Assembly (NCBI GenBank): GCA_040752355.1
Contig: JBFMHE010000006.1
Location: 76,721-108,720, forward strand
DNA length: 32,000 nt
Source of the DNA: Nitrospirota bacterium
GTDB taxonomy: Bacteria; Nitrospirota; Thermodesulfovibrionia; Thermodesulfovibrionales; Dissulfurispiraceae
Direction of reading: 5' to 3'
Shown: in pieces, positions 3,302 through 5,859 of the stretch
Layout: the number at the start of each line of letters is the position of its first letter
Numbering within the stretch: the stretch's first letter is position 1
Position numbers and translations under genes: made by a program
Notes under the pieces: generated by a model
What the model was told of the DNA's origin: nothing
The model's input: only the letters and a program-made list of their open reading frames with translations
The model's database searches: none

Positions 3302-4729
3302 ATGCGTACGTTGCTCCTCAACCCACCCTCGTATGGAGGGTTCGACGGCGGAGCAGGCTCACGGTACCAGGCGCGCCGCGAGATTCGCTCGTTCTGGTAT
3401 CCCACCTGGCTCGCCTATCCGGCGGGACTTATTCCCGGGAGCCGCCTCATCGACGCGCCTCCGGAGGATATCGGTGTCGATGAAGTGGTCCGCCGGGCAC
3501 GGGACTATGACCTGGTCGTCATGAACACGAGCACGCCGACGGTGATGAACGATGCGCGCACGGCCGAGCTGCTGAAAGAGCATTACCCGGGAATCGTCAT
3601 CGGCCTCGTCGGCCCCCATACCATGGTGCTGCCCCGCGAGACGCTCGCGCTCTCGAAGGCCATCGACTTCGTAACCACCGGAGAGTTCGACTACGCGGTT
3701 GCCGAGATCGCGCAGGGCATCCCTTTCGACAAGGTAGCCGGGATCGCCTTCAGGGCAGGCGGCGGCATCCGCCGCACTCCCGGCAGGCCGCCGATCGAGG
3801 AGCTCGATGCGCTTCCCTTCGTGACCGAAGTGTACGCCCGCGACCTGGCGATCGACAACTACGCTATCGGCTACCTCAAGCACCCGTATATCTCTTTTTA
3901 TACGGGCCGGGGATGCCGCTCCCGCTGCACCTACTGCCTCTGGCCCCAGACCATTGCGGGGCATGCCTATCGCGTGAGGAGCGCGGAGAACGTCCATGAA
4001 GAGCTCGTCACGGCGAAGCGGCTCTTCCCTCAGGTGAAAGAGTTCTTTTTCGACGACGACACCTTCACCGATACTCCCTCTCGAGCTGAAACGATAGCAC
4101 AAAAAATAAAACCCCTCGGTATTGCGTGGTCGTGCAATGCGCGGGCCACGGTGCCGAAGGAGACGCTCAGGAAGATGAAAGAGGCCGGTCTGCGCCTGCT
4201 GGTGGTGGGGTTCGAGTCGGGCAACCAGAAGATATTGAACAACGTCAGGAAAGGCGTCCGCCTCGATCAGGCCCGCGCATTCGTCAAGGCGACAAAAGAG
4301 TTGGGCATCCTCGTTCACGGCACCTTCATTCTCGGCCTGCCCGGCGAGACCCCGGAGACCATGGAAGAGACGATGCGTTTCGCCCTCGAGCTCGACCCCT
4401 ACAGCATCCAGGTCTCGCTCGTTGCACCCTATCCCGGCACCGAGCTCTACGCGCAGGCGGTGCGGGAGGGCTGGCTCGTACAGGAAGGCAGCGGCCTGGT
4501 AACGGACGGCATCCAGAACGCTGCGATCGCGTACAGCGGCCTGTCCCGTGAAACGATCTTCGAGACGGTCGAACGCTTCTACCGCCGCTTTTACCTCAGA
4601 CCGCGCCCTATCCTCAGGATCGTGAAGGATATGCTCAGGGACCGGGATGAGTTCAGCCGCCGGGTCAGGGAGGGCAGAGAGTTCTTTTCCTTTATGGCCA
4701 AACGCAAAGAGGCGGTCCCGACACCATGA
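3302..4729 (+). CDS. hpnJ: Hopanoid biosynthesis radical SAM protein HpnJ (B12-binding-like N-domain plus radical SAM core)
   Basis: The N-terminus MRTLLLNPPSYGGFDGGAGSRYQARREIRSFWYPTWLAYPAG matches the characteristic HpnJ N-terminus. Radical SAM cysteine triad is in YTGRGCRSRCTYCLWP. 475 aa. Confidence 0.85.
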   Translation: MRTLLLNPPSYGGFDGGAGSRYQARREIRSFWYPTWLAYPAGLIPGSRLIDAPPEDIGVDEVVRRARDYDLVVMNTSTPTVMNDARTAELLKEHYPGIVIGLVGPHTMVLPRETLALSKAIDFVTTGEFDYAVAEIAQGIPFDKVAGIAFRAGGGIRRTPGRPPIEELDALPFVTEVYARDLAIDNYAIGYLKHPYISFYTGRGCRSRCTYCLWPQTIAGHAYRVRSAENVHEELVTAKRLFPQVKEFFFDDDTFTDTPSRAETIAQKIKPLGIAWSCNARATVPKETLRKMKEAGLRLLVVGFESGNQKILNNVRKGVRLDQARAFVKATKELGILVHGTFILGLPGETPETMEETMRFALELDPYSIQVSLVAPYPGTELYAQAVREGWLVQEGSGLVTDGIQNAAIAYSGLSRETIFETVERFYRRFYLRPRPILRIVKDMLRDRDEFSRRVREGREFFSFMAKRKEAVPTP

Positions 4730-5859
4730 TACCGCAGGAGATGCAGGCCGCCCCCGCTGCTGCAGGATATTCTTCCCCTGTACCAGGGAGACGCGGAATG
4801 CTCCGGCTGGTGCTCGAGGAAGGGGGACCCGGATTCTGCCAGTTCGCGATCACCGATGCCTGCAATGCGCGCTGCGCCTTCTGCAGCTTCGCCCGCGATG
4901 CGCTGTCCGTCGGGGAGCGCTCCTACGCAGCCCCCGAAGCCGCGGCTGCGGCGATCGATATCCTCAGCCGCAGGGGCATCCGCTACCTCGTGATCACGGG
5001 CGGCGAGCCGCTCCTCCATCCCCATCTCGAAGGGATCGTCGGGCATGCGGCAGTGCGGGGCATGAGGGTGCTGCTCGTCACCAACGGCGCGCTCCTCACC
5101 GAACAGCGCATACAGGCGCTCGCCGGGGCAGGACTCTCCGGCTTCATCATATCCATCGACGCAATGGATGAGGAGGCGCACGAAACAAACCGCGGGCTTC
5201 CGGGGGTCTGCCGGAAGATCGGCGAGGCGAACGGGCTCATCAAGAGGTGGAGGATGAGCTCTACTGCATCGGTGACGATGAGCCGCCTGGTGGACTATGA
5301 CGCCGTCCCGGCGTTCCTCCGCTCCCTCGGCTTCTCTTCGGTCACCTTCTCCTATCCTCTCGAGCACCTGGCGTCGAGCTTCCGGGGGTACGCCCCTTCG
5401 GAGCTGGTGAGCTACCGTGACGATGAACTGATCGAGGCATTCGAGGCGGTGAAGCGTCTCAAGAAGCGCTTTGCCGTGGTGAACCCTACCCCCTCCCTCG
5501 AAGAGATGCAGCGCTTCGTCCGGAAGGAGCCGCAGCGCTACCCCTGCCTCGCGGGCTACAAATACTTCTACCTCGATTGGAACCTCGATCTCTGGCGCTG
5601 CCACAACGGGGGAAACCCGCTCTGCTCGGTCTTCGACTTCGACGGTTCCCAGTGTGTGCGCGACGGATGCACGCGGTGCATGATCGACTGCTATCGCGAC
5701 TCGAGCGTTATGCACCAGGTCGGCATAGCGCTCCATGACGCGTATCTGTCGCTGAGGGCCTTCCGGCCGGGGGCAGCAGCGCAGGCGCTCCTGAACAGGA
5801 GCACGTTCGGGTCGCTCCGCGCCGTCATCGAGGAGTTTACATGGATACGGCGCCTGTAG
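4726..5859 (+). CDS. Radical SAM protein, not HpnH/J/P/R-like, with a C-terminal Cys-rich (SPASM/twitch-like) region
   Basis: CxxxCxxC is present in FAITDACNARCAFCSF, followed by a GGEPLL motif. The C-terminal cysteines are in CLAGYKYFYLDWNLDLWRCH...CVRDGCTRCMIDC. There is no B12-binding domain. ATGA start/stop overlap with hpnJ (4726-4729) and a 19-nt overlap with hpnK. Confidence 0.8.
   Translation: MIPQEMQAAPAAAGYSSPVPGRRGMLRLVLEEGGPGFCQFAITDACNARCAFCSFARDALSVGERSYAAPEAAAAAIDILSRRGIRYLVITGGEPLLHPHLEGIVGHAAVRGMRVLLVTNGALLTEQRIQALAGAGLSGFIISIDAMDEEAHETNRGLPGVCRKIGEANGLIKRWRMSSTASVTMSRLVDYDAVPAFLRSLGFSSVTFSYPLEHLASSFRGYAPSELVSYRDDELIEAFEAVKRLKKRFAVVNPTPSLEEMQRFVRKEPQRYPCLAGYKYFYLDWNLDLWRCHNGGNPLCSVFDFDGSQCVRDGCTRCMIDCYRDSSVMHQVGIALHDAYLSLRAFRPGAAAQALLNRSTFGSLRAVIEEFTWIRRL

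Follow-up and report, generated by a model that had tools for sequence, protein, structure and literature searches.

A radical SAM protein of an unnamed family, hereafter X, is encoded between hpnJ and hpnK in the hopanoid gene cluster of a Nitrospirota bacterium. The family is real and widely conserved, comprising at least 441 GTDB species in about 12 phyla. X probably tailors hopanoids in a way not yet described, working alongside HpnJ on the BHT-glucosamine/cyclitol-ether head group; its chemistry we infer. Hopanoids and fossil hopanes are major geochemical biomarkers, and known genes explain side-chain diversity only partly. Of hopanoid radical SAM enzymes, a 2026 review lists HpnH, HpnJ, HpnP and HpnR only (PMC13459092). 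X was not reported in two recent synteny surveys, and a literature search for a second radical SAM enzyme beside hpnJ, or for an uncharacterized hopanoid radical SAM enzyme, found no description.

Gene structure and genomic context

The window, i.e., the whole stretch of 32,000 nucleotides that was analyzed, carries a full hopanoid cluster in the order hpnN–hpnJ–X–hpnK–eamA–shc–hpnA–DUF116–hpnH–cruF-like–hpnG–hpnI. The features relevant to this analysis are as follows.

468..3119, + strand: hpnN, RND hopanoid transporter (TIGR03480, 958 bits, cutoff 752)
3302..4729, + strand: hpnJ, radical SAM protein with B12-binding domain, cyclitol-ether step (TIGR03471, 716 bits, cutoff 577.6; PF02310 and PF04055)
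4726..5859, + strand: X, 377-aa member of an unnamed, hopanoid-associated radical SAM family (ORF and translation)
4798, + strand: alternative start of X at Met25, which would yield 353 aa
5841..6734, + strand: hpnK, YdjC-family deacetylase (TIGR03473, 214 bits, just below the cutoff of 232.6; PF04794, 204 bits, full-length YdjC match)
6719..7204, + strand: small EamA/ArnF-like membrane protein (weak ArnF and DUF6 matches; 16-nt overlap with the end of hpnK)
7273..9294, + strand: shc, squalene-hopene cyclase (TIGR01507, 818 bits; alignment begins at ORF residue 281)
9291..10307, + strand: hpnA, SDR "sugar epimerase" (TIGR03466, 462 bits, cutoff 368)
11139..12158, + strand: hpnH, adenosylhopane synthase, radical SAM (TIGR03470, 384 bits, cutoff 225; DUF3463 present)
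14219..15382, + strand: hpnI, BHT glucosamine glycosyltransferase (TIGR03472, 310.9 bits, cutoff 310)

The initial annotation had placed a 377-aa reading frame at 4726–5859 between hpnJ and hpnK, and the ORF, its translation and the scores of the flanking genes bear this out. Both overlaps that it described are also seen: the stop of hpnJ and the ATG of X at 4726 share ATGA (4726–4729), and the ATG of hpnK at 5841, the only in-frame start of that gene, lies 19 nt before the stop of X. The ATGA overlap depends on the start at Met1. The public gene call for the identical protein begins at Met25 (nt 4798, 353 aa), where the Shine-Dalgarno sequence is better (GGGAG with a 7-nt spacer, versus AAGAGG with 13 nt for Met1); however, this start would remove a (K/R)RG[T/L]L motif that is kept in the homologues and reads RRGML in the window, and Met1 with the ATGA overlap is therefore favoured, though not certain. 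Whichever start holds, X is packed co-directionally in the operon. Its frame contains no frameshift or stop, and the best 120 database matches are at least 59% identical (E ≤ ~1e-143), so that X is a genuine gene, far beyond a chance ORF.

Two neighbouring genes deserve comment. The mechanical ORF of shc starts at 6562, and the likely start is the ATG at 7273, with GAGAGG just upstream. EamA/ArnF-like small membrane genes were considered as X-specific partners and rejected, as relatives are equally frequent at loci with X (9) and at hpnJ loci lacking X (9); two EamA genes sit downstream of genes in which HpnJ and X are fused.

Family assignment

X displays the hallmarks of the radical SAM superfamily: a PF04055 match (75 bits, cutoff 29.5, residues 42–155), the CX3CX2C triad, the GGE SAM-binding motif and an AF2 model (pLDDT 88.6) whose core matches radical SAM structures. 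The triad CNARCAFC and the lack of a B12-binding domain had been read from the sequence beforehand, and both hold, the former as C46/C50/C53 and the latter in Pfam, which finds PF04055 as the sole domain and no PF02310. A GGEP motif (G92-G93-E94-P95) is invariant in X homologues.

With the full-length protein every NCBIfam model stayed far under its cutoff, the best being MoaA (TIGR02666, 70.4 versus 284 bits); BlsE (TIGR04466) reached 67.3 bits against a cutoff of 400, and with both models the N-terminal half alone was matched. The HpnH, HpnJ, HpnP and HpnR models, with cutoffs from 225 to 650 bits, are absent from the 25 best NCBIfam matches of X, so that each scores below 40.5 bits. The outcome expected by the initial annotation for TIGR03470, TIGR03471 and the HpnP/HpnR models was thus obtained, and by profile scores and domains X lies outside all four established types. 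In particular, it lacks both the B12 domain and the NCBIfam match (HpnR cutoff 650) of the B12-dependent hopanoid methylases HpnP and HpnR.

Assignment to any named family was rejected, given that the full protein, searched with NCBIfam and Pfam, and its isolated C-terminal half, searched with Pfam, produced no match above cutoff to such a family. An origin as a duplicate was likewise discarded, since identity to HpnH is 25% and limited to the core, while HpnJ shows no significant similarity. In current databases stand-alone X is labelled generically as "MoaA/NifB/PqqE/SkfB family radical SAM enzyme", and HpnJ-X fusions just as "HpnJ".

Conserved cysteines and predicted fold

Two cysteine-containing regions were delineated in X.

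4861..4884, + strand: CX3CX2C motif (C46, C50, C53; CNARCAFC) of the SAM-binding [4Fe-4S] cluster, 100% conserved in 78 homologues
5545..5691, + strand: C-terminal cysteine-rich region, putative auxiliary Fe-S site (C274-X17-C292-X7-C300-X14-C315-X2-C318-X3-C322)

Seven cysteines besides the triad (C162, C274, C292, C300, C315, C318 and C322) are each retained by 97% or more of the homologues and belong to a set of 74 residues kept at that level. Of the C-terminal cluster proposed initially, C274, C292, C315, C318 and C322 stand firmly (at least 99% in the 78 homologues), whereas C310 is retained in only 39% and is usually replaced by Arg; C300 and C162 (nt 5209–5211) are conserved as well. 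The AF2 model places a β-hairpin (E280-283/E288-290) between C274 and C292 and a helix starting at residue 321. Twitch-type enzymes have a shortened SPASM domain, in which two cysteines flank a β-hairpin and others bind a single auxiliary cluster; in X, the predicted hairpin and four further conserved cysteines would be the candidate counterparts.

The canonical SPASM motif, CX9-15GX4C-gap-CX2CX5CX3C-gap-C, differs from the CX17C-X7-C-X14-CX2CX3C of X. SPASM (PF13186) gave no match to the isolated C-terminal half even at E ≤ 10, nor did the full protein reach the cutoff of the NCBIfam SPASM model (TIGR04085), and Pfam found no domain in the C-terminal half. Since the SPASM sequence models give no match, the "SPASM/twitch-like" description offered initially is carried by cysteine spacing and predicted fold. 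The structures nearest to X belong to radical SAM enzymes of the sugar-modifying and twitch/SPASM kinds, namely BlsE (E 3.9e-14), SkfB, viperin, DesII, SuiB, PqqE, MoaA and anSME. From the conserved pattern and the model, the C-terminal cysteines may help to hold one or two auxiliary Fe-S clusters.

Distribution and synteny

To analyze the genomic context of the family, hpn neighbours within 10 kb were recorded at 80 genome loci of X from about 12 phyla. At least one hpn gene was present at 58 of these loci, most often hpnJ (36), followed by hpnI (27), hpnK (23) and hpnL (23). Direct adjacency on the same strand was found for hpnJ at 22 of the 80 loci, in both orders (hpnJ→X and X→hpnJ), and hpnL directly adjoined X at 14. 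Linkage to shc/hpn genes is thus kept across distant taxa, one operational mark of an hpn gene, and the conserved linkage anticipated by the initial annotation is confirmed. No hpn gene was found in the fetched flanks of the remaining 22 loci, mostly from Verrucomicrobiota. An SNF2-type helicase gene lies downstream of X at four of the Verrucomicrobiota loci without hpn genes.

These data bear on the notion that chance placed X, an unrelated radical SAM enzyme such as a cofactor or peptide maturase, in the cluster, or that X is a decaying paralogue. The many Verrucomicrobiota loci without hpn neighbours, including the four with the helicase gene, and the generic similarity of X to MoaA, NirJ, AhbD and PqqE would fit this notion. 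It is contradicted, and largely refuted, by synteny and fusion data: linkage extends over about 12 phyla, fusions included, and hpnJ lies within 10 kb in 45% of cases against a chance expectation that we roughly estimate at well below 1%. In addition, the 74 near-invariant residues indicate strong purifying conservation, and the frame is intact. We consider it very improbable.

X is an accessory to the hpnJ module and not a universal component of it. Among 80 metagenome loci anchored on hpnJ only 2 bear X, and X is absent from Burkholderiaceae hpnIJKL loci and from Methylobacterium replicons carrying hpnJ; a search of a plasmid collection yielded no match at 1e-20. The nearest relatives of the window HpnJ (76% identical) lack X. 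The reading of X as an insert at the hpnJ–hpnK junction is supported, as in Mycetohabitans and in these closest HpnJ relatives hpnK follows hpnJ directly. In about 18 soil metagenome loci an HpnH-like radical SAM gene precedes hpnJ, which was considered as an analogous second partner of HpnJ and rejected; with TIGR03470 scores of 359–367 bits, these genes are, judging by sequence, ordinary HpnH with an insertion.

At some Nostoc loci X sits beside hpnA–hpnH with no hpnIJK within 10 kb. This arrangement, seen in L050, L052 and L056, is what would be expected if X modified another part of the hopanoid, e.g., by functionalizing side-chain C-30/C-31 (pentol/hexol series) or by epimerization to BHT stereoisomers. 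The 14 loci in which X is paired with hpnL only and the fusion of a distant X-like domain to an HpnA-like SDR (P0179) point the same way, and we know of no enzymes assigned to the pentol, hexol and stereoisomer series. However, fusion and tight adjacency are specific to HpnJ, and there is, to our knowledge, little precedent for radical SAM enzymes hydroxylating unactivated CH2 groups; we give this alternative little credence.

Fusions with HpnJ

HpnJ and X occur as a single protein of about 830 aa, with X at the C-terminus of HpnJ, in at least 20 distinct protein clusters, which lends strong support to the earlier suggestion that X is a partner for HpnJ. The fusions L041, L053 and L054 each span one ORF of 832–837 aa, the N-terminal half scoring 691–725 bits on TIGR03471, and 20 distinct full-length fusion clusters are 57–81% identical to the reference L053. 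In the AF2 model of one fusion (pTM 0.84) the linker is short and of low confidence.

X-linked and X-less HpnJ could not be told apart at any alignment column, and no cysteine difference was found between them. Compensation by X of a defect in the linked HpnJ was rejected on these grounds, and the absence of any HpnJ position tracking X suggests, at the level of sequence, that X contributes an additional function instead of making up for a deficiency of HpnJ.

A stronger form of partnership would be a cyclitol-ether synthase that, in these lineages, requires X as its second subunit, with HpnJ and X jointly contracting glucosamine to the aminocyclopentitol and X supplying, for example, an oxidation or H-atom step done by a different enzyme in Burkholderia. 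The recurrent fusions, the compact fusion model and the 22 directly adjacent loci would agree with this, and no in vitro reconstitution of the HpnJ reaction has been reported (PMC13459092). On the other hand, X-less hpnJ is the common state, B. cenocepacia forms the cyclitol ether with hpnJ alone (PMC13459092), HpnJ shows no X-dependent sequence differences, and the closest relatives of the window protein do without X. An obligate role is thus unlikely, and as X is rare or absent at hpnJ loci and B. cenocepacia needs hpnJ alone, X appears dispensable for the known cyclitol-ether product.

Proposed role of X

Because X adjoins or is fused with HpnJ in many phyla, an extra step on the hopanoid amino-sugar head group is probable, in which X, a predicted catalytically competent radical SAM enzyme, would serve as an optional add-on. 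In the window X is expected to share a transcript with hpnJ and hpnK, probably with translational coupling; operon packing here and C-terminal fusions in other lineages suggest that HpnJ and X work in one complex or one after the other. The N-terminal [4Fe-4S] cluster would cleave SAM, and the resulting 5'-deoxyadenosyl radical would take a hydrogen atom from a carbinol carbon in the head group, an amino sugar or aminocyclitol, of BHT-GlcN or BHT-CE. The radical left on the substrate may then be resolved via one or two auxiliary Fe-S clusters on the seven conserved extra cysteines, leading to a two-electron oxidation, epimerization or dehydration, as in BtrN, DesII, BlsE and viperin. The modified head group would be formed just before or just after ring contraction by HpnJ.

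We know of no bacteriohopanepolyol structure that obviously demands such a step. As a tentative and rather doubtful extension, HpnJ and X could form a two-radical-SAM machine making a head group not yet structurally assigned, e.g., an aminocyclitol or amino-sugar ether that is oxidized, epimeric or otherwise rearranged. This would make X a fifth hopanoid radical SAM enzyme, with new chemistry, and its product a lineage-restricted biomarker of NC10, Nitrospirota, heterocystous cyanobacteria, Geobacter-type Desulfobacterota, Marinimicrobia and some marine Alpha- and Gammaproteobacteria. Guanidine-substituted BHT-CE/GlcN was considered as the product and kept as a weak lead only, because a guanidine is not what one would readily expect from radical SAM chemistry, and Zymomonas and Methylobacterium produce these lipids too. 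Known producers include Geobacter sulfurreducens, Dolichospermum and Nostoc (PMC5642901), which overlap in part with X-positive lineages.

Where head-group variants or isomers lack an explanation, X is a concrete candidate, and it is possibly also a taxon-restricted marker gene for reading bacteriohopanepolyol signatures. The natural HpnJ-X fusion may prove easier for biochemistry, and annotation is affected as well, through the generic label of stand-alone X and the fusions hidden under HpnJ.

Comparison with known systems

HpnJ (TIGR03471) shares the operon with X, and elsewhere the polypeptide; both are radical SAM proteins of the hopanoid head-group branch. BLASTP detects no similarity between them past the cluster motif, the B12-binding domain belongs to HpnJ and the C-terminal cysteine-rich domain to X, and X is optional where HpnJ occurs. 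HpnH (TIGR03470) is, like X, a non-B12 radical SAM enzyme of a MoaA/NirJ-like clade found in hpn clusters, and the identity with the window HpnH spans a 225-aa core. In contrast to HpnH, X lacks the C-terminal DUF3463 domain, falls below 40.5 bits against a cutoff of 225 and has the seven extra conserved cysteines.

The calditol synthase Cds and PtmC, proposed makers of cyclopentitol head groups, represent the same type of chemistry as the pathway of X; compared here by their described role, they are analogues of the role of HpnJ rather than of X. The SPASM/twitch enzymes anSME, SkfB, PqqE and SuiB, recovered by the fold search, share with X a C-terminal extension with several conserved cysteines around a β-hairpin followed by a helix, both predicted in the case of X, whereas the canonical SPASM cysteine motif is missing from X and the Pfam and NCBIfam models do not match it.

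The best sequence and structure matches to X are BlsE (PDB 7VOB), DesII (8HZV), BtrN (4M7S) and viperin, which act on carbinol carbons of sugars or cyclitols. Although identity is 14–20% with TM ~0.5, the sequence matches are confined to the N-terminal 40–170 residues and the C-terminal cysteine pattern differs, these enzymes have the partial TIM-barrel core in common with X, and their amino-sugar-like substrate class fits its genomic context.

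Results

The hopanoid cluster and the reading frame of X

The window carries a full hopanoid cluster, encoded on the plus strand except for an hpnG-like gene on the minus strand, in which the radical SAM gene studied here, X, separates hpnJ from hpnK.

468-3119 (+), hpnN
3302-4729 (+), hpnJ
4726-5859 (+), X, a 377-aa ORF
5841-6734 (+), hpnK
6719-7204 (+), small EamA/ArnF-like membrane protein gene (161 aa), overlapping the end of hpnK by 16 nt
about 7273-9294 (+), shc
9291-10307 (+), hpnA
10342-11142 (+), DUF116 (PF01976) gene between hpnA and hpnH, overlapping hpnH by 4 nt
11139-12158 (+), hpnH
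12134-13024 (+), CruF-like hydratase gene, overlapping the 3' end of hpnH by 25 nt
12979-13845 (-), hpnG-like gene
14219-15382 (+), hpnI, end of the cluster
20566-23128 (-) and 26568-28394 (+), downstream of the cluster, two LPS heptosyltransferase genes and a 608-aa protein

As proposed in the initial annotation, the ATG of X and the hpnJ stop codon form ATGA and X overlaps hpnK by 19 nt; these last 19 nt of X cover the sole possible hpnK start. The public gene call begins the X protein at Met25 (353 aa), where Shine-Dalgarno spacing is better than at Met1, and residues 1-18 are disordered in the AF2 model. Met1 is favoured, and with it the ATGA coupling, because a Met25 start would cut off residues of the (K/R)RG[T/L]L type (RRGML in the window), a motif kept in homologues directly ahead of a conserved LVLEEGGPGF block.

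The mechanical shc ORF (6562-9294, +), of 910 aa with a TTG start, is extended at its N-terminus by ~237 aa that overlap hpnK and the EamA gene; translation probably begins at the ATG at 7273, preceded by GAGAGG, giving a typical 673-aa cyclase. The hpnG-like nucleoside phosphorylase reaches 92.5 bits on TIGR03468 (cutoff 187) and, given this low score and the opposite strand, represents either a diverged HpnG or a related enzyme of the MTA/SAH-nucleosidase type. The CruF-like protein is a homologue of carotenoid 1,2-hydratase (57 bits, under cutoff); coupled to hpnH, such a hydratase could target the C22(29) double bond of diploptene or another isoprenoid. A similar match lies near hpnI in one comparison locus (L088). 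The DUF116 protein matched no NCBIfam family, and tblastn found none at other X loci; hpnL is absent from the 32 kb. Downstream, one of the heptosyltransferases forms a fusion with a GmhB-like heptose bisphosphate phosphatase, and the 608-aa protein locally resembles hydrazine dehydrogenase/HAO-type multihaem proteins, though weakly (57 bits, cutoff 900).

Family, conserved residues and predicted fold of X

The predicted CxxxCxxC triad (CNARCAFC) corresponds to C46/C50/C53, and the proposed lack of a B12 domain agrees with Pfam, which detects PF04055 alone (residues 42-155). X scores above the cutoff of no curated NCBIfam family: its best matches, MoaA (70 bits, cutoff 284), BlsE (67, cutoff 400) and NirJ2, AhbD and viperin (about 61-63 bits), are confined to the N-terminal third. 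The HpnH, HpnJ, HpnP and HpnR models, anticipated to fall below cutoff, are all outside the 25 best matches and therefore score less than 40.5 bits each. With the HpnH of the window X shares 25% identity across the core, and with its HpnJ no significant similarity.

Conservation reaches at least 97% at 74 positions across 78 homologues, among them the cluster cysteines, the GGEP SAM motif and seven additional cysteines (C162, C274, C292, C300, C315, C318 and C322). C310, originally quoted within the C-terminal cysteine cluster, is not conserved. A confident AF2 model (pLDDT 88.6, pTM 0.87) predicts a partial TIM barrel, a β-hairpin between C274 and C292 and a helical C-terminus. BlsE is the nearest solved structure both by sequence profile (E 1.5e-22; then SkfB, MoaA, viperins, PqqE and BtrN) and by fold (E 3.9e-14, TM 0.52/0.59; then SkfB, viperins, DesII, SuiB, PqqE, MoaA and anSME), so that the structural neighbours comprise sugar/cyclitol-modifying and twitch/SPASM enzymes. 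The C-terminal half, earlier suggested to be SPASM/twitch-like, nevertheless has no Pfam match even at E<=10, and its cysteine spacing (CX17C-X7-C-X14-CX2CX3C) differs from that of SPASM domains, so that an auxiliary Fe-S domain is a plausible candidate.

Distribution and genomic neighbourhood

A profile search with X retrieved 200 clusters at E<=1e-30 out of 1.84 billion representatives. Each of the best 120 database clusters shares at least 59% identity with X, and all bear a single name, 'MoaA/NifB/PqqE/SkfB family radical SAM enzyme'. Scanning one genome per GTDB species yielded at least 441 relatives, the best 80 of which include Alpha-, Gamma- and Deltaproteobacteria, Geobacter/Trichlorobacter, Nitrospirota, NC10/Methylomirabilota, Marinimicrobia, heterocystous cyanobacteria (Nostoc, Anabaena, Trichormus), Elusimicrobiota, Armatimonadota, Planctomycetota, Omnitrophota, Verrucomicrobiota and a Chloroflexota MAG.

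At these 80 loci, neighbours within 10 kb were counted by tblastn with the Hpn proteins of the window and an HpnL: hpnJ was present at 36, hpnI at 27, hpnK at 23, hpnL at 23, hpnA at 15, hpnN at 14, shc at 6 and hpnH at 4. At least one hpn gene occurred at 58/80, a conserved linkage such as a hopanoid role had implied; the other 22 are mostly Verrucomicrobiota or truncated contigs, although hpnJ does lie near X at two loci from Verrucomicrobiota (L072, L076). That X lies beside hpn genes by chance is very improbable. It is directly adjoined by hpnJ on the same strand at 22 loci and by hpnL at 14; within 10 kb, hpnL was found at 23-30 of the 80 depending on the method, and five of six candidates tested exceed the cutoff of TIGR03476, an LPG-synthase TM/flippase-like family.

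L003:11140-12183, hpnL
L018:11227-12207, hpnL
L015:11117-12205, hpnL, which is present at 27 other X loci as well

The order is hpnJ-X in the window, NC10 and others, and X-hpnJ-hpnI in Proteobacteria and Marinimicrobia. Heterocystous cyanobacteria show two layouts: X followed by divergent hpnI...hpnK-hpnJ (L042-L046), and hpnN-like, hpnA, hpnH, X, hpnIJK being absent within 10 kb (L050, L052, L056). Action of X elsewhere on the hopanoid side chain is improbable in our estimate.

Fusions of X with HpnJ and other proteins

Extending the X frame upstream at three loci (L041, L053, L054) revealed single ORFs of 832-837 aa: residues 1-470 match the HpnJ model at 691-725 bits (cutoff 577.6), and the last 360 are X. 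A search with one of them, L053, recovered full-length fusions of 788-845 aa in 20 distinct clusters at 90% identity, sharing 57-81% identity with the query and coming from NCBI, JGI, ENA and Logan assemblies, annotated, where named, as 'HpnJ' alone; partial fusions were also among the matches. Given so many distinct clusters, the fusion is an old and diversified architecture, no artefact of assembly. It is the strongest evidence for the earlier idea of X as a partner of HpnJ, and the AF2 model of one fusion (pTM 0.84, a low-confidence linker of just 8 residues) is loosely consistent with a packed two-domain enzyme.

Two proteins from the representative search point toward polar-lipid head-group or sugar redox chemistry: in P0141 (718 aa) an X-family domain precedes a CDP-alcohol phosphatidyltransferase domain, and in P0179 (688 aa) an HpnA-like 3beta-HSD/epimerase SDR is fused with an X-like radical SAM domain that is more distant. 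On two long contigs (L165, L166), two small EamA genes follow the HpnJ-X fusion. Such genes, often paired, occur at both X-containing and X-less hpnJ loci and, by analogy with ArnE/ArnF, could flip a cationic amino-sugar hopanoid over the inner membrane.

hpnJ loci without X

X is an accessory and not a universal part of the hpnJ module, since few hpnJ-anchored loci contain it and it is missing from the hpnJ-bearing replicons of Burkholderiaceae and Methylobacterium. Among 80 metagenome loci anchored on HpnJ instead of X, found by patterns from a mixed HpnJ alignment and apparently largely soil-type judging by sample identifiers, it is present at two (L087, L128). Consistent with the proposed insertion of X at the canonical hpnJ-hpnK junction, hpnK directly follows hpnJ at about 20 of these loci, among them those with the closest relatives of the window's HpnJ (76% identical; L085, L086), and in Mycetohabitans (hpnI-hpnJ-hpnK-hpnL, with a 4-nt hpnJ/hpnK overlap); X in the window is therefore an insertion. 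Paraburkholderia has hpnJ-hpnI-hpnL, and in Burkholderiaceae hpnL comes after hpnK or hpnI. One metagenome hpnJ clade has hpnH directly upstream of hpnJ, with an insertion of ~40 aa and an HpnH model match in two stretches (359-367 bits).

L092:3793-4893, insertion-bearing hpnH
L107:4526-5626, insertion-bearing hpnH
L139:1789-2895, insertion-bearing hpnH

In the HpnJ tree, X-linked sequences are spread over five clades or more, the deepest branches among them, with X-less sequences in between; X-less here means that X is absent from the fetched flank. No alignment column or cysteine separating the two groups was found. Pairwise distances of X and HpnJ correlate (Pearson r = 0.74), which fits co-inheritance but would also follow from shared phylogeny alone.

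Discussion

The data show X to be an intact and conserved radical SAM enzyme whose links to HpnJ and the head-group module are both physical and genomic. A 2026 review of lipid-modifying radical SAM enzymes lists, for hopanoids, HpnH, HpnJ, HpnP and HpnR only (PMC13459092), a 2025-26 microsynteny study names hpnL, hpnM, hpnS and hpnT and no radical SAM gene, and a 2025 survey of Alphaproteobacteria states that further candidate genes near hpn clusters are not evident. No description of X was found in the literature searched, within which it is undescribed. X extends the known hpnIJK(L) head-group module by another radical SAM enzyme, one that belongs to a separate family and in some cases is fused to HpnJ.

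The fusions would suit an obligate two-subunit cyclitol synthase of X and HpnJ; however, HpnJ alone is genetically sufficient in B. cenocepacia (PMC13459092; PMC9092360) and is unchanged in X-positive genomes, and we consider such a synthase unlikely. For the same two reasons we favour an extra tailoring step, which is fairly probable. Guanidine-substituted BHT-CE (cyclitol ether) and BHT-glucosamine (BHT-GlcN) have been reported from Dolichospermum, Nostoc and Geobacter sulfurreducens (PMC5642901), producers that partly overlap the X-positive lineages, and a link to X is a candidate lead. We hypothesize that the head group of BHT-GlcN or BHT-CE, an amino sugar or aminocyclitol, loses a hydrogen to X in the step directly preceding or following the ring contraction ascribed to HpnJ, and that the putative auxiliary clusters of X would then complete an oxidation, epimerisation or dehydration-type step, in parallel with the reactions of the nearest structural relatives of X, BtrN, DesII, BlsE and viperin.
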